The notes: a model not told the origin generated them from the sequence alone. Shown: positions 34,449 through 56,394, counted from the stretch's first letter. The stretch is DNA of 64,000 nucleotides from a virus (IMGVR_UViG_3300037470_000577:15291-79290), one strand, 5' to 3'. A program made the numbers and translations.

Positions 34449-34687
34449 TATTCTTCCTCCTCATGGGTTAATTGGGATAACAAATAAGCCTCCCTTACCT
34501 GATAGACAAGCAAGTAGGTACTATAGCCAACAATGTGCGTACCGTGCTGGGGTAGGTTGTCCAGCTTTTCCAGGCTGTCAATACCCAATCCCTCTAAGGC
34601 GGCAATAACGAGCTTCGCTTTCTTGGCCGGTTTAACGATTTTGCGAATGTATTTATTGAACATAAAGCGTTCCTTACAGCAGAGCAA
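34448..34687 (-). CDS. small hypothetical protein
   Basis: coupled. Confidence 0.5.
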   Translation of the reverse strand: MLCCKERFMFNKYIRKIVKPAKKAKLVIAALEGLGIDSLEKLDNLPQHGTHIVGYSTYLLVYQVREAYLLSQLTHEEEE

Positions 34688-35915
34688 AGGTATATTGGGC
34701 GTCGCTCTGCTTTAGCTGCATCAAGATACGATAGGCTTCCACTTCACCCATCTTGGTTCCAAAAGGACAATTCAAGATGTCGCGCCGGATGAACTTAACC
34801 TCTTCCCCTTCCTTTCGTCTGGTCTGGGCGATGATGAGGTCTTGCTTGTATTCATTCTCTTTGGCCCGAACGTTCTCGCAGGTGGAGCAGATGGGCTTCT
34901 CCAGTCTGGCCGTTGTCATGTAGACAATGGCCTGGGCCAGCGCCTCCGGGATAACGTACTGGCCGTTCTCGACCTCCGCCAGACCAGACAGGTAGCTGCT
35001 GACAACTCTATCAGGCTCGAAGCCGTTGATAAAGGCGGTGTCGGTAAAGGTGTCGCCCTCGTAAATGGTGGGAACGGGCGATACCAGACCAACTTCCGGA
35101 CTGCGTGGTAGAAGCTGGGCGGTCTGCACCTCGGCGATGTTGATGTGTCTGCCGCTCCAGTAAAGCGTACACTGCTCGGCCGGATCGGTGTAGACCCGAT
35201 ATACGTCAACAGCGGCAACAAAGCTGGCCGGAACATCTATGGGAATGCCGGAGCCGTAGGCTGAACCGGGCCACGCCTCCTGAACGGCTGGCGACAGCAG
35301 CATCTCGCTCGCTACCGTTGCGGTGAAGGTCGTGCCGTCGGCGCTCTTGGTCAGAAGCGGCCGAATCTCCCACTGTTTGGCTGCGCCCGTTCCGACAAAG
35401 AAGAGCCTTAATTCGGTTAGCTCAGTTAAATCGGTCAGCGCCGAAATGGTTGCCAACTCATCCCAACCATCGCCGTCCGGGTCGCTGTAGGTGACGGTCG
35501 CACCCGCTTCGATGAGGGTAGCGGCCCGCTTGCCGCCAGTGATGAACCGCTCTCGTTTCAGGGCAACGGACTTAAACGAGCCGTTGACACTTCGACCGGT
35601 CGTGCCGACAAAATCAGGGCGAAAGAAGGATGGGTACTGGCCGTTCTCGTTCTCGATATAGTGCGGGGCAGGCCAGTATCGTAGTTCGGAAGCAATGGCG
35701 TTTTCTGTTCGGGCCATCTCGCGGGCCAACTCTTCCCGGCTGACGCGCGTTCGATGCTGCCACTCATGCTGATACCAGATGTCACGGCAGCCCTCGTTTT
35801 GGGGGATTAAGGGAACGCTTGAATCATCACCACCATTAAAATGGACAGGATTGATACCCATAATACGGGCATAGGTGTCCAGGGGGGTGATGGTGTAGAT
35901 ACTAGCTCTTGCCAT
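34674..35915 (-). CDS. head-tail connector/adaptor-like protein with large insertion
   Basis: C-terminal YLSG...IPEALAQAIVYMTTARL resembles gp6/gp15 adaptors. Confidence 0.55.
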   Translation of the reverse strand: MARASIYTITPLDTYARIMGINPVHFNGGDDSSVPLIPQNEGCRDIWYQHEWQHRTRVSREELAREMARTENAIASELRYWPAPHYIENENGQYPSFFRPDFVGTTGRSVNGSFKSVALKRERFITGGKRAATLIEAGATVTYSDPDGDGWDELATISALTDLTELTELRLFFVGTGAAKQWEIRPLLTKSADGTTFTATVASEMLLSPAVQEAWPGSAYGSGIPIDVPASFVAAVDVYRVYTDPAEQCTLYWSGRHINIAEVQTAQLLPRSPEVGLVSPVPTIYEGDTFTDTAFINGFEPDRVVSSYLSGLAEVENGQYVIPEALAQAIVYMTTARLEKPICSTCENVRAKENEYKQDLIIAQTRRKEGEEVKFIRRDILNCPFGTKMGEVEAYRILMQLKQSDAQYTFALL

Positions 35916-36186
35916 AATGTTTATCTACTAGCAGCGCCGCCGCCGACAAGGCGAAAGGCATGGCCGCTTTAACAGGTACAAAGACAAGCGCCAGTCCAAC
36001 CCAAACCGACAGGCAGTATTTGCAGGTGAGTGCTTCTGATAGTTCGTTCGTACCATAGGAGATAGCGCCTTCATACCGAACGCCCGCCTGGTGGCGAAAC
36101 CAGCGCAGACAGTCATAGGGGCCATCCTCTTCCATCAAGAGTTTGACCAGTCGCCACGTTGCCAGTGCCTTAATCAAATAGTCCAT
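35902..36186 (-). CDS. DUF1360-family membrane protein
   Basis: LATWRLVKLLMEEDGP...FR...LTCKYCLSVWVG. Confidence 0.8.
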   Translation of the reverse strand: MDYLIKALATWRLVKLLMEEDGPYDCLRWFRHQAGVRYEGAISYGTNELSEALTCKYCLSVWVGLALVFVPVKAAMPFALSAAALLVDKHYGKS

Positions 36187-36193
36187 AACCAAT

Positions 36194-36239
36194 AAAAAAA
36201 GGGCCGGTCAGCACAGGGAGGATACCCGCTGACCGGCCC
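36194..36239 (-). terminator. intrinsic terminator-like hairpin (12-bp stem + T7) 7 nt before the DUF1360 ATG
   Basis: gggccggtcagc/gctgaccggccc, with A7 at 36194-36200 on +. Confidence 0.75.
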
Positions 36240-36319: not shown

Positions 36320-36352
36320 TTCACTACTTGTGAAGCCTTCACGCCGCGTGAA
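36320..36352 (+). repeat. dispersed motif copy 5, tandem doublet (TTCACTACTTGTGAA-GCC-TTCACGCCGCGTGAA)
   Basis: exact 17-mer at 36336-36352; supplies the stop codon of the large glycosyltransferase. Confidence 0.9.
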
Positions 36353-39300
36353 CTTCGGAACCGAATACCAGGTCAACGGTACTTTGTCCCACGCCAGGCA
36401 GCGCCAGCAAGCCGTCTGGCCCCAATGCCTGGGCCTGGGCTAAGGTGGTAATGCCTTTCTCCTCCAATGCCTTAAGCGAACGGAAGTTGATGGGTAGTCT
36501 ACTAAGTGGTTCTTCGACAACGATGGGCTTGGGCGCCTCTCGCTCACGCTGTTTGGCCTGGTACGCTTCTCGTCGCTGCTGGATTAAGTCAACCGGATCG
36601 TAGCCGTTGACAGTCTTTCTTTCGACAGGTTCAGGCTGGGCGACAGGTTCGAGACGGGGGGCAGGAGCGACCTGTTCTGTATGGCGAGGCTGACCGCCAC
36701 AGTCGCACCAGGCTGTCTCACGGTTAAACTGGAGAGGACGGCGGCAGTAGGCGCAGGCAAAAATCTGCACCTGTGCCCGCACATCCTGACTATCCACATT
36801 CTTAACAACATCGCCCTTCGTCACGCGGGTATAACGTTTGCCGGTTTCGGCGCCAACAAGCCACTGCTCGCCGCCAAAACCCTGGTAGATTACATCCATC
36901 GCACTCATCTCCATTGGGGCAGGTGGCCCCGGTTGTTTTTCATCGTTATCACAGTTACACATACGCTCTACCTCATTGAATTTCTGCTGGATATAGGTTA
37001 AGGAACGGGCGTACACATCCGGCTCCTGAATCCGCCGCCTGCCGCTTGCCAGGTCATATATCCACAGCGGCTCGGCAATCTTGGTGAACTGCCGCCCGCT
37101 CCAAGATAGCTGCAAAATCAGCAGGTTATCTTCCCACGTTTCCAGCGTCTCGTCAAAGGGGATCATCCACTCGCGCGGGATCAGGATATTCGTTCCGGCA
37201 GCGGTGTAAGGGATTGGCCCCTGGGGAAAGGCCGTTGCTTTCTCGCAGCGCCATTCAGGAACCTTATCTGGTATGTACGCCTTACCACCCGCAATCTTGG
37301 CCGCTGGTGGGCCGTAGCTGTCGGCGTACTGCTCGTCTACCAAAGCAATAAAATCACTGTACGGTATCTTGCCCGTCTCTTGAAAGCGGCGGTAATGCTT
37401 TGCCAGATATTCCGGTAGGATACGGTCGTCGGCATCGACAAAGGCTAACATCGCCCCCTTCGCCTGCCCTACGCCAGCATTGCGAGCCGCGCCCGCTCCC
37501 ACGCCGTCCGTCTCTAAGTAGGTGACAAAGGGGAAGGCAGTGCGGTAATAGGCTTTAGCCGTCTCGTTCTCAACGCCATCCCATACCACAACTGCCGCCC
37601 ATTCCCGCATAGTCTGCCCTTCGATGCAGTGCAGGCAGTTGACCAATAGCCCTTCGTGACCTGGGCCAACCGGGATAATGATAGAGACCTCCGGCTTCTC
37701 GTAGGAATAAACGGGATGGGCAATGCCGTTCACAGGCTGGGCGATAGAGGCAAACGGATGGACGCCGCCGCTGGTCCAGGGATGTTCGAGCGTCCAGTCC
37801 GGCTCTTCATAGCCCATCTTACCCGACACATGCCCCACACCCGAATAGTGAAGCCATCTGCTGGGCCTGTCGCGGTCAACGACATAGCTTGCGCCCCAAC
37901 CCATTGCCCCCAATCGCAGCCATAACTCAGCATCCTCAGACCCAGCGCCATCCGGGGCGTAGAGCGGCATGTAGCCGCCCGCTCGCTCGAAGGCTTTGCG
38001 GCGAATCATACAGCCTGACGGAACCTGATTTATGTGCGCTAACTGCTTCTGATAATCAAATGGGAAAGGCCAGTTATACTCATAATCTTCAACTCTGCCA
38101 TCGTCGTCCCAACGAATCTTGCCCGTCATACTATCTTTCTGGAAACCACGAACCGTATCTATGCCCAACATGGAAGTGTAAGCCACTCCCAACGTTCCAT
38201 CTCGTTCCAACTCTCGCGCCAGAATCGGCGACCAACCCGGCTCAATATTATCGTCGGCATCTAAGAAAGCTAGATACTTACTCTGCCCCTGTCTGGCCCC
38301 ATAATTACGAGCCAGAGCAACGTTGCCAAATTCGACCCGATGATAGCTGATACGGCTGTCTCCCTGAGCCGCCACAATCTCCTGTATGCCAGGGTCAGAT
38401 GAATCGTCCACGACGATGATGTTCTTGACTGCTGAACTTTGGCCCATTGCGCCCTGTAGCGCCCGTTCTAGGGTATGATGGTAATTGTGGCAGGGAATGA
38501 CTATATCGACTGAGGGCGGCTCGTTTTGAAGGGCTAGACGATAAACGGTGGCGACTTGGGCAACGATGCCAGGCCAGGAATAGCTCTTTGCGATTTCTTT
38601 GGCCCAGGTCGAGTAATCTCTCCTGTTGTAAAGTATATCTTCAAGAAGCATTACGGCGTCATCAAAATCTCTATAAGACCAACCGGCTTTCTTTCCTGGT
38701 CTTAAAAGAAAATTCGGGACCTCCCCAGCGTCAACCGTTAGCACCGGAACGCCACTAGCCATCGCCTCCAGTGGGGCGATACCAAATGTTTCCCGGTCTG
38801 AGGCAATGAACACCAGCGATTGCTGGATAAGGCGCTTCATCTCGCCCGAAGGAACCGCGCCGCCCAACACCTGTAAGTTGGCGGGCTGGTTAGGCCCGGC
38901 CAGGGTCGAAATGAACTTCTGACTTGGAAAGGCTTTTGCCAATCTGTTAATGAACGAAGGGTCGAGGCCGTCCGTTGCCCGGTTCTTAGCCCACAGGATA
39001 TGGGCTGGCGTCTCATTATGCTGCCACTCCTCCCACTCTACGCCATGCGGAATGATGTGGGGTGTGACGCGCATGTCTCGTTGGAAGGGCATGGCAACCC
39101 ATGGCGACGGAACGGTTACCTGACGGGCTAGGCGGTAGGAGCGTACTAGGTCGCGATTAACGACGTGAGCGGCATCACCTAATTGCGGCATCTCTCCCGT
39201 CCAGAGATTTCCGTGTGAATGAACCACCTGCGCTCCAGGATGGGCGGCGGCATGAGCTACCTCCAGGTCGTAGCTGGTCGCCATCGGGTCAACCAACTCA

Positions 39301-39407
39301 ATATCGTAGTCCGGCAGGTAGCGGAAGTAATGTTTGATTACCTGGGCAATGCCGTTGTCGTGGTTTGCCAGGTCGTGAAGATGGGGATACATGCGTACTT
39401 TAATCAT
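36339..39407 (-). CDS. multi-domain glycosyltransferase: GT-B (GT4-like) + two GT-A (GT2-like) + Cys-rich/HhH C-terminus
   Basis: RETFGIAPLEAMASGVP (GT4); VDIVIPCHN..FLDADD and VSIIIPVG..FVDADD (GT2 DxD); LLALPGVGQSTV HhH. Confidence 0.9.
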   Translation of the reverse strand: MIKVRMYPHLHDLANHDNGIAQVIKHYFRYLPDYDIELVDPMATSYDLEVAHAAAHPGAQVVHSHGNLWTGEMPQLGDAAHVVNRDLVRSYRLARQVTVPSPWVAMPFQRDMRVTPHIIPHGVEWEEWQHNETPAHILWAKNRATDGLDPSFINRLAKAFPSQKFISTLAGPNQPANLQVLGGAVPSGEMKRLIQQSLVFIASDRETFGIAPLEAMASGVPVLTVDAGEVPNFLLRPGKKAGWSYRDFDDAVMLLEDILYNRRDYSTWAKEIAKSYSWPGIVAQVATVYRLALQNEPPSVDIVIPCHNYHHTLERALQGAMGQSSAVKNIIVVDDSSDPGIQEIVAAQGDSRISYHRVEFGNVALARNYGARQGQSKYLAFLDADDNIEPGWSPILARELERDGTLGVAYTSMLGIDTVRGFQKDSMTGKIRWDDDGRVEDYEYNWPFPFDYQKQLAHINQVPSGCMIRRKAFERAGGYMPLYAPDGAGSEDAELWLRLGAMGWGASYVVDRDRPSRWLHYSGVGHVSGKMGYEEPDWTLEHPWTSGGVHPFASIAQPVNGIAHPVYSYEKPEVSIIIPVGPGHEGLLVNCLHCIEGQTMREWAAVVVWDGVENETAKAYYRTAFPFVTYLETDGVGAGAARNAGVGQAKGAMLAFVDADDRILPEYLAKHYRRFQETGKIPYSDFIALVDEQYADSYGPPAAKIAGGKAYIPDKVPEWRCEKATAFPQGPIPYTAAGTNILIPREWMIPFDETLETWEDNLLILQLSWSGRQFTKIAEPLWIYDLASGRRRIQEPDVYARSLTYIQQKFNEVERMCNCDNDEKQPGPPAPMEMSAMDVIYQGFGGEQWLVGAETGKRYTRVTKGDVVKNVDSQDVRAQVQIFACAYCRRPLQFNRETAWCDCGGQPRHTEQVAPAPRLEPVAQPEPVERKTVNGYDPVDLIQQRREAYQAKQREREAPKPIVVEEPLSRLPINFRSLKALEEKGITTLAQAQALGPDGLLALPGVGQSTVDLVFGSEVHAA

Positions 39408-39692
39408 TTACCACGTAGCCAATTCGATGTCGGGGTCTGCCGCGCCATCTCCAAGAACTTCCTTAGCATTACCGGTTAGCAGAACCGGAGGCTGGGAGGT
39501 GCCAAGAATAGCCAGATATACTCTACCACCAAGCAAGATTTTCATCCGCTCCAGGAGGGAGGGTTTCCAGCAAGAAACAAGGGCGGGGCTGGTGTTGTAC
39601 TGGATACGTAAAACGTGCATATTGCCGATATTCCTATCCTCGTCTCCCGTATAGGTTGTTTGTTGTTTATGAAAACTGATTGGTTTCATCAC
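39408..39692 (-). CDS. conserved phage hypothetical protein
   Basis: VSCWKPS..ER.KIL.GG.VYL...G..QPPV. Confidence 0.7.
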   Translation of the reverse strand: MMKPISFHKQQTTYTGDEDRNIGNMHVLRIQYNTSPALVSCWKPSLLERMKILLGGRVYLAILGTSQPPVLLTGNAKEVLGDGAADPDIELATW

Positions 39693-39946
39693 GCCTCTCT
39701 TTTATTCGGCCTCGGCTTGCGCGGTTTCCTGCGCTTCACCAGCCCTAATTCCGACAGCCTCTCCGCACTCAACTGCCCAATATCGCTGCCGGGTTCAACG
39801 ATGGTAACAGAGAAGTCGGCATAGGGAACGGATGCGGCCCAGGCCCACACCGCTTCCTGAATTTCGTCCGGCTTGTCATGGTAGATAATGATGATGTCGC
39901 CGTCCTGGGGACGGATTACCTTGCCGTTAAGAATAAGGTCACTCAT
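39689..39946 (-). CDS. hypothetical protein
   Basis: coupled; basic tail. Confidence 0.6.
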   Translation of the reverse strand: MSDLILNGKVIRPQDGDIIIIYHDKPDEIQEAVWAWAASVPYADFSVTIVEPGSDIGQLSAERLSELGLVKRRKPRKPRPNKREA

Positions 39947-40454
39947 TGCCCATCCCTGTCCAATAAAAGGCTTCTTTTTCCATCTCGTCCAAAATAGAGA
40001 GACAATCGCTCGGTGTTAAATATTTGCCCGTCACTCTTTGCTGATTAAGCTCGCGTAATCCAGCCGCTTGGTTAGCACGTTTCCCGAACTCAATTGTCCA
40101 CACCGGAAGGTCGTATGTTCGTTGGCCTACAACTAACTTACCATCGTGGATTTTGCCGTCTGTGTCATAAGAATAAGAATCAAGTTCGTACATCAGATAA
40201 AGCAACAGAGGATTATCAAGTTTGGCAGTCTTAACCTGGAGCCACCTTCTAAAATTTCCAATTGACCAATGAATAGGGTTATAGGATTCCGCCTCCATCT
40301 TCATGCTATATGTCGTTCCGATTCCCAGGTGGTCAACATCCATCTCCCGGTCTAGCAGGGATACGGCAGTTCGATAATCGCTCTCGCTTTCAAAGTAGAA
40401 AATCGCAGCGTATTTTTCCGTGACGGTTACACCAATAGTAGTTTCTTGTGCCAT
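39939..40454 (-). CDS. hypothetical protein
   Basis: AT-richer ORF in cassette. Confidence 0.6.
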   Translation of the reverse strand: MAQETTIGVTVTEKYAAIFYFESESDYRTAVSLLDREMDVDHLGIGTTYSMKMEAESYNPIHWSIGNFRRWLQVKTAKLDNPLLLYLMYELDSYSYDTDGKIHDGKLVVGQRTYDLPVWTIEFGKRANQAAGLRELNQQRVTGKYLTPSDCLSILDEMEKEAFYWTGMGNE

Positions 40455-40733
40455 CTAATTCACCACTCTCTTCTCTGCCCTATAGATAGGGTTAAAGTCC
40501 TTATCTGGTTCCAAATGCCAATCGTACTTTTGGTCGGATACGGGGGTCTCGACAGATTCATACAGATCGTTAAACGCTATCTCTTCAACAAACCATGTCT
40601 TACCGCCACTTCTTACCCGCCAGTCTCCAGGGGAATACCTAAATTCTGAACCACTTTCCAAATCAATAAAGGTTCCTCCCTCGTCAACTTGTTCGGCAAA
40701 TACAGTATGCGGCCTTCTTCGGTACGGTTCCAT
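40455..40733 (-). CDS. small phage protein (Y.R.P..V.A.Q...PGDW..F...YE type)
   Basis: motif common in phage accessory genes. Confidence 0.65.
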   Translation of the reverse strand: MEPYRRRPHTVFAEQVDEGGTFIDLESGSEFRYSPGDWRVRSGGKTWFVEEIAFNDLYESVETPVSDQKYDWHLEPDKDFNPIYRAEKRVVN

Positions 40734-40734
40734 A

Positions 40735-41427
40735 TTAGTTCACCACCAATCCCTTGCCTATCTGATTAGACATCCCGATGTGCGCCCATTGATATTTATT
40801 TAACCCATACATGGGAATGAACACCGATGGCCCGTTGTCGCCCAGTCCCCGTTTCTTCTCGATAAAGCGGGAACAGAACGCCATCTCCGTCTCGCCCAAC
40901 GGCAAACTCTCATCGTACCAGCCGTAGTAATCGGTGTGAAACTGCCTGACCTTGAGATGAGGACGATTGGAAGTCACATACAATTCATTATAGGGCAGGA
41001 GTTCCCAATAGTCACCCCATGCCTGGGCCGCGAATTTATAATGCTTGTCCGGCTCAATGCACTCGCCCATATAATAGCGCACCCAACCGAAGCGCGGCTC
41101 GTTGTTCAGGCGGCGGGCGGCGTCGTTGAGGTCAAGAGGCTGGGTCAGTATGTGATCGTCGTCCATCTGAAACAGGAGGTCGGTGCTGGCCGTTTCAATC
41201 AGGCGGTTGAGATTTGCGCCTAACCCCCGCTTGGGGCCAGGAACAATGTGTACCCTATCATCCAGGACGGCAATCTCGTCCAGGCTTTCCGCGCCATCAT
41301 TGCCAATCAGGTAGTGGATGTGGCCTAACTCGTAGCGGACATTGGCTCCAAATTGGGCAACGGCTAAGGCAACGGTGCTGGGCCGGTTGTAGGTGGGGAT
41401 GAGGACGGTGATGTCGAGGTCAGCCAT
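40735..41427 (-). CDS. GT2-family glycosyltransferase
   Basis: VLIPTYNRP, IGNDG, GLGANLN, QMDDD. Confidence 0.88.
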   Translation of the reverse strand: MADLDITVLIPTYNRPSTVALAVAQFGANVRYELGHIHYLIGNDGAESLDEIAVLDDRVHIVPGPKRGLGANLNRLIETASTDLLFQMDDDHILTQPLDLNDAARRLNNEPRFGWVRYYMGECIEPDKHYKFAAQAWGDYWELLPYNELYVTSNRPHLKVRQFHTDYYGWYDESLPLGETEMAFCSRFIEKKRGLGDNGPSVFIPMYGLNKYQWAHIGMSNQIGKGLVVN

Positions 41428-41716
41428 CTACATATCCTGTTGTAAGCAAGGCATCCAGCCCCGGAAATTCGTTGCCGGTATCAACTCGCCCTGGAGCACC
41501 GTGCCAGAGATAGCTGGTTTTCATCTCTGCTTGGTGGTCACTTTCCAGGATGGCGAACAAGCGTCGATACTTCTTGCCGGTTTTTTCCGTCTCCCGAACG
41601 CTTCCATGAAGAAGAGTGCGAACGACCTCTCTTTCTCCGCGAAGAAAAAGGCGGGTCATTCGTTCCTTATTTCTTTTCAAGATAACCTCCGGCTTGTCTA
41701 TGTCAAGATGGGTCAT
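41420..41716 (-). CDS. hypothetical protein
   Basis: start re-assigned to ATG 41716 with GAGG SD. Confidence 0.5.
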   Translation of the reverse strand: MTHLDIDKPEVILKRNKERMTRLFLRGEREVVRTLLHGSVRETEKTGKKYRRLFAILESDHQAEMKTSYLWHGAPGRVDTGNEFPGLDALLTTGYVDG

Positions 41717-42383
41717 ATCTAAACCTCGTGATGTCGTCAGTGAAAAACGTCTCCACTTCTGCAATCTGTTCGGCTGTCAGCGCCTCGCGCCACTGCCCTA
41801 TTTCGCCAGAATAGATGTGACGGGGCGACATGAAGTGCCGTTCGTTCTGGTCCAGTGCCATCCCCGCCCGTATCCGATTGGCCTCCCTACCCCACTTGCG
41901 GGCGATGTATTCGGCAAGGTCAGAATGAAGGTGAAAGTCCATGTAGCTGCCAACCACCTTAACAAACCGGGTCGGATCGGCCATCATATCTTCGTAACGA
42001 AGATACTCTGCTCCGGGGCCAATCCCATAAACATAGCCAGACTTGGTTTCCCACGAACTGAGCGCCGCACTCCAGTTCTGCACTGCCCTACTTGCCATCG
42101 TGCCTTCAAATGTATTTTGCTGAAAGTGCACGAGCGAGACGAATACATCTCTTGGATCGCGGACGGTCACAACAGCCCGATAGTCAAAACCCTTTAGCGC
42201 CGGATGCCACTCATGCAATTTGATGACTACGCCATTCGGCTCGCTCTCCCACCCGCGCACCATATCGGCGTCGATGCCGAATGGCCTAACCACTCGCCCG
42301 CCGTGTAGGAGAACAATTTCGCCCATGACCTGGTAGAGAAAGGTCGAAGCGGTTTTCATGGGGCCACCGGCAATATAGAGCAT
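41703..42383 (-). CDS. sulfotransferase (PAPS-dependent)
   Basis: 5'-PSB GPMKTASTFL, KLH, 3'-PB VRDPRDVFVS, LRYEDM, G..GQWR. Confidence 0.9.
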   Translation of the reverse strand: MLYIAGGPMKTASTFLYQVMGEIVLLHGGRVVRPFGIDADMVRGWESEPNGVVIKLHEWHPALKGFDYRAVVTVRDPRDVFVSLVHFQQNTFEGTMASRAVQNWSAALSSWETKSGYVYGIGPGAEYLRYEDMMADPTRFVKVVGSYMDFHLHSDLAEYIARKWGREANRIRAGMALDQNERHFMSPRHIYSGEIGQWREALTAEQIAEVETFFTDDITRFRYDPS

Positions 42384-42384
42384 T

Positions 42385-42561
42385 TTAGATGACCCTCTGG
42401 TAAATCAACCTTTTTCGCAGCTCATGAACCTCTGCCTCCAGCTTTTCAACCCTTTCCTTAATGCTTGGTGGTTCTTCGCTAAACATCCTGACAACATCAT
42501 TTCCATCGTCGTCGGTGACAACTTCACCAATTACAACGCCGGCCATATATTCCATACCCAT
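42385..42561 (-). CDS. small coiled-coil protein (58 aa)
   Basis: read manually; fills the gap exactly. Confidence 0.5.
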   Translation of the reverse strand: MGMEYMAGVVIGEVVTDDDGNDVVRMFSEEPPSIKERVEKLEAEVHELRKRLIYQRVI

Positions 42562-42574
42562 CTTCTTTCGTCCA

Positions 42575-42829
42575 TTATTTTAATTTCCTCAGAAGTTCCT
42601 TCTCGTAAACAGTCATTTCCAACACCGCTCTGATATTATGACCAGTGAGCGATTGGTATGCTTCCGCAAGCCTCTCGCACAATTCCGTATAGTTCTCCAC
42701 CGTATTCGATAATTCTTCTCTATCGGCATCGTGTTGGATTAGCCGGTCGGCATACTCTTGTCTAAGTTCCTCGAATTTTTCAAACTCCTTGTATATGGAG
42801 TCTGTGATTTGTGCATCTAACTTGTCCAC
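42575..42829 (-). CDS. coiled-coil hypothetical protein
   Basis: AGGAG SD. Confidence 0.6.
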   Translation of the reverse strand: MDKLDAQITDSIYKEFEKFEELRQEYADRLIQHDADREELSNTVENYTELCERLAEAYQSLTGHNIRAVLEMTVYEKELLRKLK

Positions 42830-42834
42830 GATAT

Positions 42835-43374
42835 TTACACCATTCTCCTAAACGACCGAATCGTACAGGCTCTCTCCAGTTCTACGAACCTATCACCATT
42901 GGCTGCATACCAATCCGAGACAACTTCATTCACTTCGGGACAGATGTGGTGCGGTTTGTTGGGGTCGCAGGAACCGTAGTCGCTACAATCGTGGAAGGCA
43001 ACCACGCCATTGACGGTCAGACGGTCAATCCACCCCAGGTCTAATGTCACCCCCTGCCTGGAATGGTCGCCGTCTATAAACAACAAGTCAATGTCGCCAA
43101 CGAAGGTTTGGAGAACATCGTGCGAACGGCCCTCGACCAGATAGAAGTTGCGGTTGGGATATTTCGGCCCCGCATAGCGGGCTAGGGAAATGTCTATGCC
43201 GGTGACAGAGACGGAGGGTTTAGCGCCATCGGTCAGGCAGACCATTGACTTACCAAATTCGATTCCAATATTAACAATACTTCCATTCTCTGGTACTTCC
43301 CCGGCAAGTTTATATAACCGTTTTGCCTCAACCTCTTGAAGATACCCTCTCGCTTTTAGGTGTCTGTCACTCAC
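42835..43374 (-). CDS. class I SAM-dependent methyltransferase (Methyltransf_24-like)
   Basis: IVNIGIEFGKS, GID, IDLLFIDGDHS, VVAFHD. Confidence 0.88.
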   Translation of the reverse strand: MSDRHLKARGYLQEVEAKRLYKLAGEVPENGSIVNIGIEFGKSMVCLTDGAKPSVSVTGIDISLARYAGPKYPNRNFYLVEGRSHDVLQTFVGDIDLLFIDGDHSRQGVTLDLGWIDRLTVNGVVAFHDCSDYGSCDPNKPHHICPEVNEVVSDWYAANGDRFVELERACTIRSFRRMV

Positions 43375-43670
43375 TCTGTAGCTCCTTTACTTGGGAAAAA
43401 GTATTTCTCAGGCTCTTCATTCCAATTAACACCTTCTATCTGGTTTGGCGTAACCACTTTCCCTTTGATAATGAAAAAGCGGTCTCCGTATCCAGAGAAC
43501 CTACTAAGTCCAAGATAGCCCGTCGCTTTGATTGGATGAAGCGGTGCTTCTTCGGTAGCGTGACTGAGTTCATTGACGAGAGAATCCTCTTCACGCACTA
43601 AGACAATGCCAGCACTAGGAGAGATAACGAAATATACATCTTCTTTTTCAAATGTTGGTCTGTCAGACAT
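43371..43670 (-). CDS. hypothetical protein
   Basis: coupled. Confidence 0.55.
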   Translation of the reverse strand: MSDRPTFEKEDVYFVISPSAGIVLVREEDSLVNELSHATEEAPLHPIKATGYLGLSRFSGYGDRFFIIKGKVVTPNQIEGVNWNEEPEKYFFPSKGATE

Positions 43671-43863
43671 ATTCTATCTCTACCTCCAGTGGGTCAATCG
43701 TCTCGTTCTCAAAATATATACGAACAACCTGCCTACCCTGCCGGGCAAGGTCATTGTGGATTAGTTGGCGGATGTAGGCCACCAGTGACAGGTCGCGCTC
43801 GCCCGCTCGCTCAGTTGCCGCTTCGTGCAACTCATCTTCTAATCGTACAGAGAAAGATACCAT
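43663..43863 (-). CDS. ribbon-helix-helix (CopG/Arc-like) regulator, probably leaderless
   Basis: SFSVRLEDELHEAATERA...SLVAYIRQLI. Confidence 0.8.
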   Translation of the reverse strand: MVSFSVRLEDELHEAATERAGERDLSLVAYIRQLIHNDLARQGRQVVRIYFENETIDPLEVEIEYV

Positions 43864-43869
43864 AACCTG

Positions 43870-43898
43870 ATTCTATCTGGCAAGGTTTACGGTGTCAA
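43870..43898 (-). promoter_or_regulatory. sigma70-type promoter TTGACA-17-TAGAAT, 6 nt before the ATG of the RHH gene
   Basis: near-consensus hexamers with 17-bp spacer. Confidence 0.85.
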
Positions 43899-43942
43899 GT
43901 TGGTGCAAATATGAGAGCGTTGTGAGCGACGGTTGGCAGTGG

Positions 43943-43970
43943 AGGATGTCGTGCTATAATGTTCATGTTT
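43943..43970 (+). promoter_or_regulatory. divergent promoter TTGGCA-16-TATAAT with extended TG
   Basis: TGCTATAAT at 43962-43970. Confidence 0.7.
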
Positions 43971-43976
43971 GTTCTC

Positions 43977-44235
43977 TGCGGCGGGAAGGTAGGAGTCCCC
44001 CTAGCTCCTACCTTCCCGCCCACCTAAAAACATTCGCTGGCAGTAACAGTAATAGGGGGCCAAAACGTTCTCATATCCTTCTTCCAAAGTAAAAGAGCTA
44101 TCCTATATGGATAGCTCTTTTACGTAAAGGAGAACTACATGAGAAGTAGTTGGGCGGACGGACAAACCATAACCCATTTGCCGGGACGTGTCAATAAAAA
44201 AGAGAGTGGCATAAAAACCACTCTCTTTTTATTTA
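43977..44235 (+). ncRNA. putative structured intergenic RNA (16-bp hairpin/pseudoknot, 15-bp hairpin, optional 33-aa ORF at 44139-44240)
   Basis: promoter upstream, terminator downstream, two perfect stems, loop-downstream 7-bp complementarity. Confidence 0.5.
44197..44230. terminator. bidirectional intrinsic terminator after the major capsid gene
   Basis: aaaaagagagtgg / ccactctcttttt, A- and T-tracts on both sides. Confidence 0.8.
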
Positions 44236-44281
44236 AATAATCAGGATAAGAATTTGAATAAAACTCTTATCGTTGCGATTT

Positions 44282-45796
44282 TTATAGCCAAGCAGCGTAA
44301 GCTGTTGGGCCTGCCGGTGAACGTCCAGGGGTTGAAACGCCACCATTGACCCAATAATTTGAGTCTGGATGCGGGTCGCGCAGCGGTGCATTCTGGCGGG
44401 CATATTTGAGCCGGATAACTCTGAAACCAAGATGGGGTGTCCGTACCACAACACGGGGCGCGGTCGTCATCTTCAACTTGAAGCAGGTGAACTTGCCATC
44501 TTGCGACCACAGGAACCGACCGCCATCTGTTGACCAATTGATGAGATTGGCCGGAAGTCCGGCTGCCTGGGCATTAATATCTGCATAGTTGAGATACTGC
44601 CAATAAGTGACGGGCATACCGCCTGCCGAGAGGGGGATGAAGTTGAAGGATGAGGCAAACTCGCCCATGCCCAAGCCGGGATTGGAGGCGCTATTCTCTT
44701 CCGGGATGCCATGATCAATGACGACATTGTAGCGCCGACCGTTGATGTCGATGTACAGCCCGGCTCGCATCGCATCCCGCTCCTGAACGTTGGTTCTGGC
44801 GTCGATCATCACGCGAGCATTACTACCGGCAATGACGGCCATATCGGGCTGCGTGTTGTAGGCGATGGGCCAGACGCTTGTTAGAACGCGCCATAGCTGG
44901 GGCCGAACGGCAACGACGAAATCGGCCGGGTCCATACCGGTGTCCATCGCCAGATTAAAGGCGAAATCTTCCGCCTCTTCGATGGGGGCCACAACGTCAA
45001 AGGCTGAACCAACGGTCTGGTAATTGACGTTGATAATGGTTGTATCAGCCGAGGGTAGCGCCTTGCCACTAATTTCGGCATCGACCTGCCCGGTTACAAG
45101 CTGGGATTCCAGACCTGGGAACTCAGCATAGCCGCCCAGCGTCTTAACCGCCACATTGCCTGTCCAGAGCATCTTATTCAGCTTGCGCTCCATCCGAACG
45201 CCGGTCTGGAGTTGTTCGGCCTGAACAACCAGGTTCAGGATGTTGGCCTGATTCAGATTGGTGGGATAGCCAATGCCCCGGTTCTCATCATTCAGAAGCG
45301 AGCCAACGAGCATTAAGTCAGTGAAGTCGCCCCGGTTAATCTTGGTGATAGTTTGGGTGATCTCGATATTCTCGGTGTCGCGGGAAACAACGCCGAAACG
45401 GGCGGTCAACGTCCCTGATTTGATGTAGCCCGATGGCGCATCATCGCAGGGGTAGGTTGGTTCGCCGCCCTGATCATCGGAGATACCGGTCAAGAGACCG
45501 AACATCGGGTTGGTATCGTTGGACGGGAAGGCTTGCAGCAGGGAGCCAAGTCCTCTGGCCCGAACATGAGTAGAGATAACGGCATTGTCCAGTCCTGGGG
45601 TGTTGAACAACCCGCCCGGCCCGTGCAGCAGTGTGCCGGTATGGGCATTGACAACATCACGGGACAAGGCATTACCGCCATATTGATGTAGACCCTGCAT
45701 GATGTCTAACCCGCCACCAACGTCACGACCGCGCCGGGCAGACATTTCCAGGTGACGAGCAACTTCTTTAGCGAGGGCTTCGATTTCGCCAGCCAT
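44282..45796 (-). CDS. major capsid protein
   Basis: 504 aa after protease and scaffold, strong SD, followed by terminator. Confidence 0.8.
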   Translation of the reverse strand: MAGEIEALAKEVARHLEMSARRGRDVGGGLDIMQGLHQYGGNALSRDVVNAHTGTLLHGPGGLFNTPGLDNAVISTHVRARGLGSLLQAFPSNDTNPMFGLLTGISDDQGGEPTYPCDDAPSGYIKSGTLTARFGVVSRDTENIEITQTITKINRGDFTDLMLVGSLLNDENRGIGYPTNLNQANILNLVVQAEQLQTGVRMERKLNKMLWTGNVAVKTLGGYAEFPGLESQLVTGQVDAEISGKALPSADTTIINVNYQTVGSAFDVVAPIEEAEDFAFNLAMDTGMDPADFVVAVRPQLWRVLTSVWPIAYNTQPDMAVIAGSNARVMIDARTNVQERDAMRAGLYIDINGRRYNVVIDHGIPEENSASNPGLGMGEFASSFNFIPLSAGGMPVTYWQYLNYADINAQAAGLPANLINWSTDGGRFLWSQDGKFTCFKLKMTTAPRVVVRTPHLGFRVIRLKYARQNAPLRDPHPDSNYWVNGGVSTPGRSPAGPTAYAAWL

Positions 45797-47193: not shown

Positions 47194-47592
47194 TTATGTT
47201 TCCTTGTCAAAATTCTCCGGCGATGTGAGGGAAGCGTCTGCATGAATAGAGCCGCCCGGTTGGGCCGTCACCGTCATACTCGCCCCCCGTCCCATGCGTA
47301 CCCGGTCAATAATATCATTGGCATAATTACTGCCCCGACTGATAATGATGCCGGTAATAACTACCCCCACATAGGGGATGCGGGCCTGAAAACCCAGCGC
47401 GTCAAAGAAGTCCAGGTTGTAGGCAATGGCTGTGACAATGGACAGGACAAGGGCCACGATAAACCGCCAGTTCTCTCCCAGCCACTCTTTCGAGAATGAC
47501 AGCCCCTTGAAAACATCGAGGGCATTAACTGACCCCTCAACCAGCACCGCTCCCAGAGCGATGAAACCAATTAGCTGTAAAGTAGTGTCCAC
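47194..47592 (-). CDS. holin-like membrane protein
   Basis: 3 TM segments; DFFDALG...GVVITGIIISRGSNY..D. Confidence 0.7.
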   Translation of the reverse strand: MDTTLQLIGFIALGAVLVEGSVNALDVFKGLSFSKEWLGENWRFIVALVLSIVTAIAYNLDFFDALGFQARIPYVGVVITGIIISRGSNYANDIIDRVRMGRGASMTVTAQPGGSIHADASLTSPENFDKET

Positions 47593-47672
47593 ATTAAACC
47601 TCCATTAACGCATGAGTGACTAATAGTTAATCCATGATACCATTATGACACTAAAACAGCAAGGAGAATGAT

Positions 47673-47951
47673 ATGGAGAAGCTATTCGACAAGAACGGCA
47701 AAGAGATTCGGGAGGGGGATACGGTCTCCCTTGCCGGAAACATGACCGCCGATGATAGCCTGGGCTATTTGCCTAATGGTTGGATATTTGATGAGAGTGA
47801 TGTGTACGAAGTTTACTTTGATGAAAGGATTCAAGGGTTGGCATTGCAGTTGGGAGTGGAACCAGATAGCGCAGAAAACGCCAAGTATATGAATCACGCC
47901 ATGTCACTATTATATGGCGGTATGGTAGAGATTGTAGAAGGAGAACGATAG
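47673..47951 (+). CDS. YopX-like protein
   Basis: DKNGKEI.EGD.V ... VEIV. Confidence 0.65.
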   Translation: MEKLFDKNGKEIREGDTVSLAGNMTADDSLGYLPNGWIFDESDVYEVYFDERIQGLALQLGVEPDSAENAKYMNHAMSLLYGGMVEIVEGER

Positions 47952-48128
47952 ATGACAAACTTTGAGCTCAAAGTATTCCTGGCCTCCTTTGTATTTGTGC
48001 TTGCTGCATGGCAAGCTGTTGCAGAAGTTCTCTTTATATTAACTGACGAAGCCGATAAGGGGTATACCCGATTTCAGACCTGCCTCCTGTATCTTATTAT
48101 TGGCCTGTTGCTCCTTCACGCCGCGTGA
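47952..48128 (+). CDS. small 2-TM membrane protein (58 aa, ends LLLHAA*)
   Basis: read manually; stop codon lies inside motif copy 6. Confidence 0.6.
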   Translation: MTNFELKVFLASFVFVLAAWQAVAEVLFILTDEADKGYTRFQTCLLYLIIGLLLLHAA

Positions 48129-48129
48129 A
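48113..48129 (+). repeat. dispersed motif copy 6 (exact 17-mer)
   Basis: CCTTCACGCCGCGTGAA. Confidence 0.9.
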
Positions 48130-48342
48130 GATTCAGGAGGAGATGGGTGATTTAAGGTAGCCCAGGATCGTAACTGTACCGGCCGTTCCTCCGCAAGCCC
48201 CTCGCCCGCATCACGGCCGACATAACCGAACTCCAGCGCGAACGTCTCCACGAGAAAGCAGAATTATTCGGCGGCTGGTCTGAGCTATGCCGCCGAATTG
48301 CCGACGATGAAATTAAATTGAGTTTTAAGGAAGGGTAACCAA

Positions 48343-48969
48343 ATGATTTTCTCAATTAGCGACCTACCGATAACCCCGGAAAACCTCCGGGAATACGAAA
48401 GATTCTTATTGGAAATACACGACGAAGTACCATACGGCGAATTGTGCGACTGTGGCGACTGTCTGGGAGTTAGCCCTCGTTTGATTGCAGCGGCCGACAG
48501 GATAGAGGAGCTTGAAAAGAAACAAGCCGCCCTGAAAGATGATAACGAGGCTCTGAAAAAAGAACTCGGAAGTTCACCAACGGCCGACGCTCTCAACAAA
48601 CTATGGCAGGACATCATTCTCAAGAGAAAGCCCGACTATGGTGATTGGGAATATCCCGGTCAGGCTTACCGGCATTTATTGACAGAGTATGAGGAATTGA
48701 AGGCCGACCCCTGGCAGCGAATCACGGCCGATCCTGCGACGTTGCCGCCTGAGGACACCGCCCTATTAATCTCCATTGATTTCAAAAACGGAAACGGCCA
48801 GATTACAATTGATGGGTATTACCACAAGGGGATGTGGTGTGTTGGCAAATGGAACGAATCTCCCCGCACAGAACATAGGCCAATCATCACTCGCTATTAC
48901 GCGGTAGAGTACGCCTGGCAGCCCTGGCCCGCGCCCGCGCCCTATCCCGATAATGAGGTAAGCAAATGA
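48343..48969 (+). CDS. hypothetical protein with coiled coil and DUF551-like C-terminus
   Basis: WQRI...LP...LLI......WQPWP.P. Confidence 0.65.
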   Translation: MIFSISDLPITPENLREYERFLLEIHDEVPYGELCDCGDCLGVSPRLIAAADRIEELEKKQAALKDDNEALKKELGSSPTADALNKLWQDIILKRKPDYGDWEYPGQAYRHLLTEYEELKADPWQRITADPATLPPEDTALLISIDFKNGNGQITIDGYYHKGMWCVGKWNESPRTEHRPIITRYYAVEYAWQPWPAPAPYPDNEVSK

Positions 48970-49172
48970 TGGACTTAGAGACCGTACTAAAAACAGAAGA
49001 TGACATCCATCTATATTCTGGATTTCGTTGGTTGTATTGGGATGGAACTCTGTGGGTGGTCAAGCAGAGTGCGCATAGGCTGGGTGGCGCGAAAACACTT
49101 TACAGCGGTAGCTCGCTACCCATAGCCTTTGATTACTTAGTCAATGAACAGGTAGGAGAGGTAAGCGAATGA
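48966..49172 (+). CDS. hypothetical protein
   Basis: coupled. Confidence 0.55.
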   Translation: MMDLETVLKTEDDIHLYSGFRWLYWDGTLWVVKQSAHRLGGAKTLYSGSSLPIAFDYLVNEQVGEVSE

Positions 49173-49396
49173 AAAATCACGACGATTGGACTGATGCAAC
49201 CCCGGCCGAACAAGCCGACGACATGCCGTTTGCCGACATGGGCGAACGAGAGCCGGGAGTGCGGTACTATACTCCTGGAGAATTGGAAAGGACGTATCGA
49301 ATAAGCCAGGTGTTATCATGCCTGGTGGTCGGTTGCCTGGTATTGATTGTCGCGGCCGTGATTGCGGCCGCTTATTTGTATTTGGTGATGAGGTGA
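49169..49396 (+). CDS. small membrane protein (C-terminal TM)
   Basis: hydrophobic C-terminus. Confidence 0.6.
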   Translation: MKNHDDWTDATPAEQADDMPFADMGEREPGVRYYTPGELERTYRISQVLSCLVVGCLVLIVAAVIAAAYLYLVMR

Positions 49397-50374
49397 GTGA
49401 TGGGAATTAAAACAGCGATAGAATGGTGTGATAGCAGCCTGAATTTACAAATGGGTTGTAATGGCTGCGAACTATGGACTAGCCGAGTAAAGAACTGCTA
49501 TGCCGGAACCCTAACCGAACGATACGGCGGTAGAAAAGGCTGGCCGATGTCCTTTGAAAAGCCGGTTACATTTCCAGAGCGGTTACAGAAGGCGTTGAGA
49601 TGGCCCGATTTGACCGGCACAGAACGGCCTGGTAAGCCCTGGCTTAATGGCTTACCGCGTCAAATATTCTTGGACGACATGGGCGATACCTTTACTAAGG
49701 GGTTGCCGATTGACTGGCTTCTTCCCCATATCCCCCTCATGGAAGATTCGCCCCACGTCTATCAATTCCTGACAAAACAGCCGAAACGCATGGCAAGATT
49801 CTTTGCCGATTATGTCGGCTATGTGCCAGGTAATTTTATCTTGGGAACGTCTGTAACTAATCAGACAACCCTTGATAGTAGAGTCGGTCATTTAGCGAGC
49901 ATACCCAACGCAACCAGATTTCTGAGCATCGAGCCGCTATTGGGGCCAGTCAGTCTGGAAAGATATTTACCCATTGAATGGTCTGAGATTGGCTCGTGTT
50001 GGGTTCCATCTCATCCGTATGACCCAGGGGCGCGGTCTAAGATTCACCAAGTAATCACCGGCGGAGAATCTGGCCCGAACGCACGGCCGATGCACCCGGC
50101 TTGGGCGCGGCTATTAAGAGACCAATGTCAGGCGGCTGAGGTCGGTTTCTTTTTCAAGCAGTGGGGAACGTATGCCCCGCGCGAGCGGACGGACAAACAA
50201 GGGGGGTGGTGGCTGGGACAAGATGGCGTGAGTTGTCGCTTTGTTGGGCCAGAGGAGCAGTATGAGGAGGACTTGGCAATGGTCAAAGTCGGCAAGAAAG
50301 CTGCTGGCCGCTTGCTGGACGGCCGCGAGTGGAACGAAATGCCCCAGCAAGCCATCAGCGTTTCATCAGATTAA
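49397..50374 (+). CDS. DUF5131 (Gp37/Gp68) radical-SAM-like three-Cys-motif protein
   Basis: TAIEWCD, GCNGC...NCYA, DMGD.F, FLTK.P.R, FLSIEPLLG, VITGGESG..ARPM, FFFKQWG. Confidence 0.92.
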   Translation: MMGIKTAIEWCDSSLNLQMGCNGCELWTSRVKNCYAGTLTERYGGRKGWPMSFEKPVTFPERLQKALRWPDLTGTERPGKPWLNGLPRQIFLDDMGDTFTKGLPIDWLLPHIPLMEDSPHVYQFLTKQPKRMARFFADYVGYVPGNFILGTSVTNQTTLDSRVGHLASIPNATRFLSIEPLLGPVSLERYLPIEWSEIGSCWVPSHPYDPGARSKIHQVITGGESGPNARPMHPAWARLLRDQCQAAEVGFFFKQWGTYAPRERTDKQGGWWLGQDGVSCRFVGPEEQYEEDLAMVKVGKKAAGRLLDGREWNEMPQQAISVSSD

Positions 50375-50384
50375 GGAAAGGACA

Positions 50385-50702
50385 ATGAACATTCAGGAAC
50401 TAGCAAACAAGGCAGCAGAGGTAATAAATCACGCGGGAAAGAGCGGCTTTCCCGGCCAGGATACACTGCAACTGGTTATGCCCCACCGCAAAAAGTGGGC
50501 CGAAACTCGCTATCTTGCGGGGCGAAATAGCCCTAAAGGAACCTACCTGGATTACTGCAAAGACGGGGAAATAATTAACTTTGATGCTATTGACATGCTG
50601 GCGTGGTGTGTTGCCAACGGTGCGACCGGAACGGCTGTCATAGACGGTAAGCAGGTTAATTTGGCTGACTTGTTACCAACCACAGCCCCGGATTCCAACT
50701 AA
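50385..50702 (+). CDS. hypothetical protein
   Basis: AAGG SD before ATG 50385; convergent overlap with the M23 gene. Confidence 0.6.
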   Translation: MNIQELANKAAEVINHAGKSGFPGQDTLQLVMPHRKKWAETRYLAGRNSPKGTYLDYCKDGEIINFDAIDMLAWCVANGATGTAVIDGKQVNLADLLPTTAPDSN

Positions 50703-53695: not shown

Positions 53696-53745
53696 CGTTA
53701 ATCTCCTAACAATAAGTTGTTATCATCCCCCCAAGTCACTACTCA

Positions 53746-53877: not shown

Positions 53878-53887
53878 TTCATTCACC

Positions 53888-54346: not shown

Positions 54347-54369
54347 GCTCTAATCCTCATTACATTAAA

Positions 54370-54386
54370 CCTTCACGCCGCGTGAA
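54370..54386 (+). repeat. dispersed motif copy 7 (exact 17-mer), intergenic
   Basis: AAACCTTCACGCCGCGTGAAC between two - strand genes. Confidence 0.9.
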
Positions 54387-54388
54387 CA

Positions 54389-56393: not shown

Positions 56394-56394
56394 A

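Follow-up and report, generated by a model that had tools for sequence, protein, structure and literature searches.

For which acceptor does a phage keep glycosyltransferases (GTs), a methyltransferase and a sulfotransferase directly behind its capsid gene? The question is raised by a stretch of 64,000 nucleotides, here called the window, which comprises bases 15291-79290 of the 79,290-bp IMG/VR virus record IMGVR_UViG_3300037470_000577 (CheckV completeness 96%) and comes from an uncultivated phage. On its minus strand, from 43898 to 36339, a sigma-70-type promoter precedes 13 open reading frames (ORFs), with stop and start codons that adjoin or overlap one another, and five of these score above curated Pfam cut-offs: a ribbon-helix-helix (RHH) protein, a Methyltransf_24 methyltransferase, a Sulfotransfer_1 sulfotransferase, a GT2 enzyme and a 1022-aa fusion of one GT4 and two GT2 domains, the triple GT (Table 1). 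An earlier note, made from the sequence alone, had described this cassette as a unit for glycosylation, sulfation and methylation bounded by terminators. Every element that it listed was found in place on the minus strand by promoter scan, Pfam search and terminator folding, the four enzymes passed a check with hidden Markov models, and the catalytic motifs of the sulfotransferase and the GTs, inspected for degeneration, are intact. We propose, with about an even chance of being right, that the unit encodes a cytoplasmic phage pathway by which a virion protein, with the capsid protein as the likeliest candidate, receives a glycan that is variable, methylated and probably sulfated. The triple GT is present in every relative checked, so that the phage particle probably bears a sugar coat of the phage's own making, which would be variable and possibly sulfated.

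The core glycosyltransferase and the variable island

Relatives of the phage were retrieved with an alignment of its capsid protein, which gave 33 IMG/VR loci, and all proteins of the window were then compared with these loci by tblastn. Scans of IMG/VR with the sulfotransferase or the large GT as single queries gave no match, and only the capsid alignment yielded relatives. Among 50,697 phage records, megablast with the cassette and tblastn with the capsid protein found no cultured relative, tblastn with the sulfotransferase gave no match, and tblastn with the triple GT gave seven short generic GT2 matches only, none of them to a mycobacteriophage. The lineage has a conserved gene order, which runs from a small terminase-like gene through TerL, portal, a 250-aa protein and capsid to a variable stretch, the multi-GT gene, a 96-aa gene and a 413-aa gene. 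All relatives with enough sequence (19 of 19) have, 2-22 kb downstream of the capsid gene, a fused or split homologue of the triple GT; five long records without a GT match within 10 kb all carry it 10-22 kb downstream of that gene, two as a fusion and three as separate GT4 and GT2-GT2 genes. In the closest relative, a 48-kb contig, the capsid protein is 81%, the large GT 62% and the sulfotransferase 65% identical to its counterpart in the window. The genes for the 1022-aa GT and for the 96-aa and 413-aa proteins are conserved genes of the lineage, with the triple GT as a core gene kept in synteny. The idea of the cassette as a unique insertion was rejected on the synteny in the relatives, and what the earlier note had called a self-contained cassette falls into two parts, as the 1022-aa GT belongs to the lineage whereas the promoter-proximal RHH, methyltransferase, sulfotransferase, GT2 and small ORFs are accessory and phage-specific.

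In an alignment of 13 homologues of the triple GT (31-37% identity), both glutamates of the EX7E motif in the GT4 domain (ETFGIAPLE; E206 and E214) are invariant, as are the DxD residues of the first (D383, D385, D386) and second (D658, D660, D661) GT2 domains and the downstream acidic motifs of both. The C-terminal module is conserved in 11 of the 13, with a linker of varying length. The family comprises at least 850 clusters at E<=1e-30, typically of 800-1100 aa and on phage-sized contigs. The fused form measures about 1030 aa in L040 and L041 (G001 and G002); in the split form, seen in L042-L047 (G003, G004 and G005), a GT4 gene of about 310 aa is accompanied by a GT2-GT2 gene of 509-778 aa, sometimes with other genes between them. 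The two forms of the core enzyme represent a fusion or fission event inside one phage lineage. A core-GT homologue of 1289 aa (P0202) carries a precomputed intein-splicing domain (PF14890); inteins usually reside in indispensable genes.

The stretch between the capsid gene and the core GT forms an island of 2-22 kb in the relatives. Our survey scanned each of 149 island ORFs of at least 110 aa, from 20 non-redundant relatives, against Pfam, and returned DegT-type sugar aminotransferases (14 ORFs), Methyltransf_24 enzymes (12), NAD-dependent 4,6-dehydratases or epimerases (7), FkbM methyltransferases (6), GT2 (5) and GT10 (4) enzymes and DNA N6/N4 methylases (3), while Sulfotransfer_1 accounts for 10 ORFs in 9 of the 20 relatives. 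The DNA N6/N4 methylases measure 423-495 aa and lie inside the island (L018:9880-11241, L025:13197-14684 and L030:12452-13723). The commonest island gene belongs to a family of about 240 aa without a Pfam or NCBIfam match, which occurs in 17 loci including two duplicate records (for example L024:11392-12105), often directly 3' of the capsid gene, and is without a copy in this window; it could encode a decoration protein or another tailoring enzyme. In the present phage the accessory part consists of the RHH, methyltransferase, sulfotransferase and GT2 genes and of eight small ORFs (58-171 aa), sited between the enzyme genes, for which Pfam, PHROG and NCBIfam searches gave no significant family match. 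No related locus has a homologue of the RHH gene or of any of the eight small ORFs, which make up 9 of the 13 ORFs in the cassette. The local cassette is a version of a lineage-wide layout, in which a fixed core GT follows a fast-changing set of sugar-making and tailoring genes.

The putative tailoring enzymes and the possible acceptors

Homologues of the S-adenosylmethionine (SAM)-dependent methyltransferase were found by tblastn in the islands of 11 related loci. Its best PDB match is 6g7d, probably a mycobacterial sugar 1-O-methyltransferase, and its sole PHROG match is partial and to a family named 'DNA methyltransferase'. The sulfotransferase belongs to the type that uses 3'-phosphoadenosine 5'-phosphosulfate (PAPS), and a six-frame search of the genome found the same single copy. 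Its Sulfotransfer_1 match spans profile positions 90-251 only. Among 11 aligned phage sequences, R75, D79 and S83 of the 3'-phosphate motif RDPRDVFVS (RDPRDVxVS) and G193 of the C-terminal GxxGxW are invariant, and W198 and E131 (in RYED) are nearly so. The N-terminal loop GGPMKTAST lies outside the Pfam match and aligns with the family motif GxPRSGxT, the K/R of the 5' loop being kept, and a His (in KLHEWH) stands where relatives carry His, in columns that are not cleanly aligned. The same motifs align with the best PDB sequence match, the plant cytosolic SOT16, and a degenerate or pseudogenised sulfotransferase was rejected because the motifs are intact. A match to Sulfotransfer_3, the family to which tyrosine sulfotransferases belong, fell below its cut-off. 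The small GT2 has homologues in four related loci (L003, L004, L015 and L022; 27-47% identity), and NCBIfam holds no equivalog for any cassette enzyme. No adenosine 5'-phosphosulfate (APS) kinase was found in five genomes, so that PAPS would have to come from the host; SAM and nucleotide sugars must likewise be host-supplied. The island of this phage is without sugar-nucleotide enzymes, unlike those of many relatives.

These genes need not belong to a single pathway. The slot might be a general accessory hot spot in which the RHH protein, methyltransferase, sulfotransferase, GT2 and small ORFs have unrelated targets, the methyltransferase acting for example on DNA or protein and the sulfotransferase on a small molecule or on tyrosine, and in which only the core GT has a lineage-wide function. 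The nine cassette ORFs without a homologue in related loci, the wide range of island sizes with DNA methylases and many ORFs without a match, the partial PHROG match of the methyltransferase and the Sulfotransfer_3 match below cut-off all agree with such a mixture. We nevertheless consider it quite improbable, since the annotatable island genes are overwhelmingly sugar-nucleotide and glycan-tailoring enzymes, since Methyltransf_24, sulfotransferase and GT2 recur together beside the core GT in several phages, and since they are here joined with the core GT in one translationally coupled operon.

The protein encoded directly upstream of the cassette has no sequence-family match. Its AlphaFold2 (AF2) model, built from a 23-sequence alignment, has a predicted local distance difference test (pLDDT) score of 58.5, and Foldseek aligned it with many HK97-fold phage capsids (prob 1.0, E 3e-7); the modelled fold indicates that this protein is the major capsid protein. 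Among 8000 metagenomic candidates, 288 homologues were found at E<=1e-3. The conserved C-terminal tail ends ...YWVNGGVSTPGRSPAGPTAYAAWL, and 116 of 120 homologues carry a GGxS motif within 30 residues of the C-terminus. The tail of about 13 residues after GGxS is variable, with 18.9% Ser+Thr versus 12.8% in the body of the protein, and it is of low confidence in the AF2 model, where it appears disordered. We suggest this tail as a candidate site of glycan attachment, and treat it as a candidate only because the evidence from the tail is weak and the sequences are non-independent. Thr-rich C-terminal tails are absent from the structural proteins here.

In the virion pathway that we propose, the three GT domains of the core enzyme would use nucleotide sugars of the host to attach to the acceptor a short conserved core, three sugars long at most, and the extra GT2 would extend or branch this core glycan. 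The methyltransferase and the sulfotransferase would then cap hydroxyls with host SAM and PAPS. The flexible linker and the (HhH)2 end of the fusion could tether it close to assembling or packaging particles, the RHH protein would set expression from the host-type promoter, and the variable island would provide each phage with a surface glycan of its own. The GT is a core gene in a fixed position behind the capsid gene, the island varies in the manner of an O-antigen locus, and the capsid protein has the C-terminus described above; together these points bring a target on the virion to roughly equal chances of being right and wrong.

The enzymes might also act on the envelope of the host, remodelling lipopolysaccharide, capsule, exopolysaccharide (EPS) or teichoic acid by way of a host carrier, flippase and ligase. 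The receptor would then be changed during infection, blocking superinfection or the re-adsorption of progeny to infected cells and debris. The organisation of the unit agrees with this, as the host-type promoter, the RHH gene in first position and the terminators on both sides mean that it can be transcribed independently of the late operon, with the autonomy of a moron. The promoter and the RHH protein, the putative regulator, had both been described in the earlier note, and both stand, with 11 of 12 consensus matches and a score of 24.5 bits against a cut-off of 21 for the HicB-family RHH region; so do the terminators as boundaries of the unit (Table 1). The closest named NCBIfam matches of the GT domains are to GTs of the cell wall, EPS or colanic acid and score far below the equivalog cut-offs throughout, the source annotations of homologues read 'glycosyltransferase involved in cell wall biosynthesis', and the GC content of the accessory part (0.49-0.50) is lower than that of the core GT (0.53-0.57) and than the 0.51-0.55 typical of the window. 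We hold remodelling of the envelope to be unlikely all the same. Nothing resembling a flippase, a polymerase, a priming phosphoglycosyltransferase or an acyltransferase-type membrane protein was found in the cassette or the 149 island ORFs; the cassette has no gene for export, its proteins are all soluble by prediction, with no membrane segment, and 121 of the 149 island ORFs of relatives likewise lack one. A tyrosine integrase (PF00589) gave no match, the whole-genome Pfam tally held no recombinase, and no other sign of lysogeny was seen. The features of Gtr-type lysogenic conversion, namely a membrane flippase, a membrane glycosyl- or acyltransferase and a temperate lifestyle, were likewise not encountered in the cassette or the genome. 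Moreover, the triple GT is fixed in the head-to-tail block of every relative, while receptor-conversion genes are usually sporadic. The proposal that the host surface is altered for superinfection exclusion is thus weakened by the lack of a tyrosine integrase and of membrane, flippase and polymerase genes.

A further possible acceptor is DNA, and it is chiefly the C-terminal module of the triple GT that keeps this hypothesis alive. Both folded parts of the module reach pLDDT >90 in the AF2 model. The last 59 or so residues (36342-36518) form a five-helix (HhH)2 domain, which Foldseek aligned with the C-terminal domain of the RNA polymerase alpha subunit (alpha-CTD) and the N-terminal domain (NTD) of Rad51 (TM 0.73-0.78; root-mean-square deviation 1.7-2.5 A to alpha-CTDs); a VIA search gave Z 7.2-7.9, within the range that this tool calls common. 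The Pfam HHH_5 match is below threshold in the window protein (E 0.013), and many homologues have a precomputed PF14520 match. Domains of the (HhH)2 or SAM-like type often bind DNA and also make protein contacts. We read this end, from its modelled fold, as a tether, possibly at packaging-site DNA.

In a hypermodification of DNA or nucleotides, the (HhH)2-tethered triple GT would build a sugar chain on a modified base, which the methyltransferase and sulfotransferase would tailor for protection against restriction. Beyond the conserved (HhH)2 domain on its long flexible linker, the C5 cytosine methylase and two DUF5131 proteins of the genome, the DNA N6/N4 methylases in the islands of three relatives and a host-type promoter that would permit early expression can be brought forward for this. 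Described DNA-sugar pathways, however, depend on a dioxygenase or hydroxymethylase (10.1101/2023.12.21.572611), and in five genomes (this phage and four relatives, three of these relatives at least 95% complete) neither Tet_JBP/5mYOX (PF12851) nor a thymidylate-synthase-like protein (PF00303) gave a match at E<=0.1; the whole-genome Pfam tally likewise held nothing that makes a hydroxymethyl base. The T4 alpha- and beta-GTs and the MT-5mYOX-GT systems of phages (10.1101/2023.12.21.572611) do resemble the cassette in their GT-A and GT-B enzymes, sometimes acting successively, and a C5 methylase is present here, but they differ from it by that precursor enzyme and by the structural gene context found here. 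Four GT domains together with the amino-sugar pathways of the relatives exceed any described DNA glycan, the unit sits in the structural and not in the replication block, and domains of the (HhH)2 type also contact protein. The earlier note had judged base glycosylation less likely, and this judgement holds, with the (HhH)2 domain retaining the option; a DNA target seems to us distinctly improbable. A particular form of it, in which the (HhH)2 domain tethers the GT to DNA and the island builds a methylated, sulfated oligosaccharide on the packaged genome without a hydroxymethyl-pyrimidine precursor, we regard as a very long shot. If true, such a DNA-borne oligosaccharide would add a new class to the DNA hypermodifications, and strains would differ in their 'DNA serotypes'.

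Several points also weigh against a glycan on the virion. Nothing seen in the sequences links the enzymes physically to the capsid protein, and the GTs appear to be without specific homology to those of mycobacteriophages. Ser and Thr are modestly enriched in the capsid tail, and the sequences that show this are related and non-independent. A protein tyrosine or a small molecule, and not a sugar, could be the substrate of the sulfotransferase, the (HhH)2 domain belongs to a type that typically binds DNA, and the DNA N6/N4 methylases in three islands indicate that the slot is not purely glycan-related. A promoter and regulator of its own, behind a strong terminator, give the unit the look of a moron and not that of late virion-maturation genes, and its transcriptional autonomy fits a moron as well as a maturation pathway. 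The location between capsid and neck/tail genes, as the earlier note had it, is secure on the capsid side through the HK97 fold, whereas the neck/tail label, which is likely, comes from synteny and a weak Atlas lead. The case for the predicted virion glycan that the note had suggested was strengthened by the neighbourhood survey, through the syntenic core GT, the sugar-tailoring island and the recurring sulfotransferases.

Comparable viral systems and significance

Freeman et al., in Cell Host Microbe in 2023, reportedly described virion O-glycosylation in the mycobacteriophages Che8, Corndog and Myrna. Their glycans are placed on the C-termini of capsid and tail-tube subunits in that part of PMC12619734 which summarises Freeman 2023, and mycobacteriophage virion glycosylation would, by analogy, be the closest functional counterpart of the system proposed here. 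Both have phage-encoded soluble GTs that accompany virion structural genes, here in 19 of 19 relatives; in the present phage the capsid gene immediately precedes the enzymes, and its product ends in a flexible tail that is conserved. The present system differs in that three GT domains are fused to (HhH)2, in that a core gene is combined with a variable tailoring island, in its sulfotransferases, sulfation being no part of the mycobacteriophage system, and in that its glycosylation is a prediction.

In architecture, the closest likeness may be found in giant viruses. The chlorovirus PBCV-1 encodes A111/114R, with three GT functions in one protein, and A064R, with two GT domains and a methyltransferase domain (PMC7826918, PMC9614988). 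As in the pathway proposed here, these are virus-encoded cytoplasmic multidomain GTs coupled with O-methylation; in PBCV-1 they serve its own major capsid protein and are independent of host machinery. PBCV-1 is, unlike our phage, a eukaryotic giant virus with a double-jelly-roll capsid and N-linked glycans, for which no sulfation is reported, and the comparison is one of architecture. The Megavirinae have clade-specific glycogene clusters with multidomain GTs and methyltransferases and, in some clades, sulfate-metabolism genes (PMC9614988, PMC10117803). Their 4,6-dehydratases, DegT-type aminotransferases and methyltransferases are the same kind of kit as in the islands of our relatives and are proposed to serve the virion fibrils. 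SAT and APS kinase occur there, whereas here a sulfotransferase is found without APS kinase; the realm and the target structure differ, and sulfation is predicted in both. Sulfotransferase genes are also known from marine phages (OM43 phage MVGs and Synechococcus phage S-SRM01), where their function was called unclear (PMC10580990). These too are genes of the PAPS-type family in tailed phages without sulfate-activation genes; they are isolated auxiliary metabolic genes of the Sulfotransfer_3 type, whereas the present one stands in an operon with GTs beside the capsid gene. Our search of the literature found no description of this lineage, of its fused enzyme or of a sulfated phage glycan.

Should the virion reading hold, glycosylation of tailed-phage virions would extend past a few mycobacteriophages and be a fixed trait of a large, widespread uncultivated lineage, in which a variable island on the capsid side acts like an O-antigen locus for the virus particle. 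The recurrent sulfotransferases would add negative charge. Coats of this kind could influence how particles adsorb to non-host surfaces and mucus, how they are grazed, how stable they are and how the defences of hosts and animals recognise them, both in nature and in therapy. The locus also defines candidate reagents, namely a soluble GT4-GT2-GT2-(HhH)2 enzyme, a compact sulfotransferase and a candidate acceptor tail.

Transcription unit and neighbouring genes

Table 1. Features of the cassette and of its flanks, in window coordinates and in the direction of transcription (dG, folding free energy; z, score against shuffled sequences).
Feature	Position	Strand	Evidence
Major capsid protein, 504 aa, HK97-fold (gene directly upstream of the cassette)	44282..45796	minus	AF2 and Foldseek
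Intrinsic terminator 3' of capsid gene, upstream boundary	44193..44233	minus	Hairpin and U-run, dG -20.4 kcal/mol, z -7.9
Sigma-70-type promoter, TTGACA-17-TAGAAT	43870..43898	minus	11/12 consensus matches; joint best score within 34-46 kb
RHH protein, 66 aa, putative regulator	43663..43863	minus	Pfam HicB-family RHH region, E 2.5e-5, 24.5 bits (cut-off 21); PHROG HicB-like
99-aa ORF	43371..43670	minus	No family match; start overlaps RHH gene by 8 nt; coding score +0.15
Class I SAM-dependent methyltransferase (Methyltransf_24), 179 aa	42835..43374	minus	Pfam E 1.5e-14, 55 bits
84-aa ORF	42575..42829	minus	No Pfam or PHROG match; coding score +0.25
58-aa ORF	42385..42561	minus	No match; coding score +0.35
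PAPS-type sulfotransferase, 226 aa	41703..42383	minus	Pfam Sulfotransfer_1 (PF00685), E 5.8e-11, 42.7 bits (cut-off 22)
114-aa ORF, TTG start	41420..41764	minus	No match; coding score +0.15
GT2 (GT-A) glycosyltransferase, 230 aa	40735..41427	minus	Pfam Glycos_transf_2 (PF00535), E 7e-12, 46 bits; DDD motif (MDDDH)
92-aa ORF	40455..40733	minus	Sub-threshold PGDYG match only
171-aa ORF	39939..40454	minus	No Pfam, PHROG or NCBIfam match; Atlas uninformative
85-aa ORF, basic C-terminus	39689..39946	minus	No match
94-aa ORF	39408..39692	minus	No match
GT4+GT2+GT2 fusion (triple GT), 1022 aa	36339-39407	minus	Glycos_transf_1 38.7 bits (cut-off 26.4); two Glycos_transf_2 stretches, 126.9 bits
GT4 (GT-B) domain, residues ~1-290	38538..39407	minus	Glycos_transf_1 (PF00534); EX7E
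First GT2 domain, residues ~298-520	37848..38516	minus	LDADD and GAGSEDAE; best PDB match chondroitin synthase K4CP
Second GT2 domain, residues ~570-800	37008..37700	minus	VDADD and WED; PDB match GalT1, 5hea
C-terminal module: CxxC, small beta domain, Pro/Ala/Glu-rich linker, alpha-CTD-like (HhH)2	36342..36965	minus	AF2 model
Intrinsic terminator 3' of triple GT, downstream boundary	36194..36239	minus	dG -32 kcal/mol, U7 tail, z -6.5
Small hydrophobic protein, 96 aa (DUF1360-like)	35902..36192	minus	Pfam DUF1360 E 5e-4, just under cut-off; hydrophobic segments
413-aa protein of the virion module, possibly head-tail adaptor	34674..35915	minus	Syntenic in 8 loci, 31-36% identity

In-frame codon-usage scores are positive for all 13 cassette ORFs, whereas ORFs on the opposite strand, taken as a control, gave mixed scores. 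The true start of the 114-aa ORF is uncertain because its TTG start overlaps the sulfotransferase gene. The -10 box of the promoter ends 6 nt 5' of the first ATG (43863), and the RHH gene is therefore probably leaderless; no inverted or direct repeat that could serve as an operator was found around the promoter region. A simple terminator scan missed both flanking terminators, which were revealed by dG and shuffle z scores.

The spacer between the capsid and RHH genes (43864-44281, 418 bp) is densely structured. It holds a second promoter-like site, TTGACA-17-TATGGT, on the minus strand at 44194-44166 after the capsid terminator, a 15-bp hairpin at 44123-44090 (dG -23.6) and a GC-rich 16-bp hairpin at 44020-43980 (dG -36). 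On the plus strand, a strong extended -10 promoter at 43933-43960 is aimed back toward the capsid gene.

Downstream of the cassette, the 96-aa gene lies directly 3' of the GT in 11 related loci and in G001, G003 and G004. In its Atlas features the 413-aa protein weakly resembles clusters that include SU10_adaptor or HCP members; searches of Pfam, PHROGs and NCBIfam and a nine-sequence profile against PDB were blank, and none of its aligned homologues (n=9) matched PHROGs. The third downstream gene is weakly tape-measure-like.

Three contigs of metagenome-assembled genomes (MAGs), L036, L037 and L038, labelled Candidatus Saccharibacteria, Starkeya and Gammaproteobacteria, encode the capsid protein of the lineage at 39-42% identity. 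These conflicting labels give no reliable host, because the contigs are probably those of phages mis-binned into bacterial MAGs.

For the remaining ORFs of the genome (L039 1-15400 and window 1-22400, plus strand), the Pfam tally comprises the two DUF5131 proteins and the C5 cytosine DNA methylase, a DnaB-type helicase, Hint/intein-splicing matches, a PolX thumb and pentapeptide-repeat, DnaJ, Amidase_2, Peptidase_M23 and Glyco_hydro_cc matches. The DUF5131 proteins and the methylase may have to do with a DNA modification in which sugars play no part.

Between the portal gene and the gene for the 250-aa head protein, about 12 kb (47194-59515) have no counterpart in the 33 related loci, where the gap measures 0.5-7.5 kb. 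This region includes a plus-strand block (48343-50702) and encodes a 451-aa protein that looks secreted and has a Ser/Thr/Pro-rich linker (58160-59515); the head module seems to have a second hot spot for accessory genes here.

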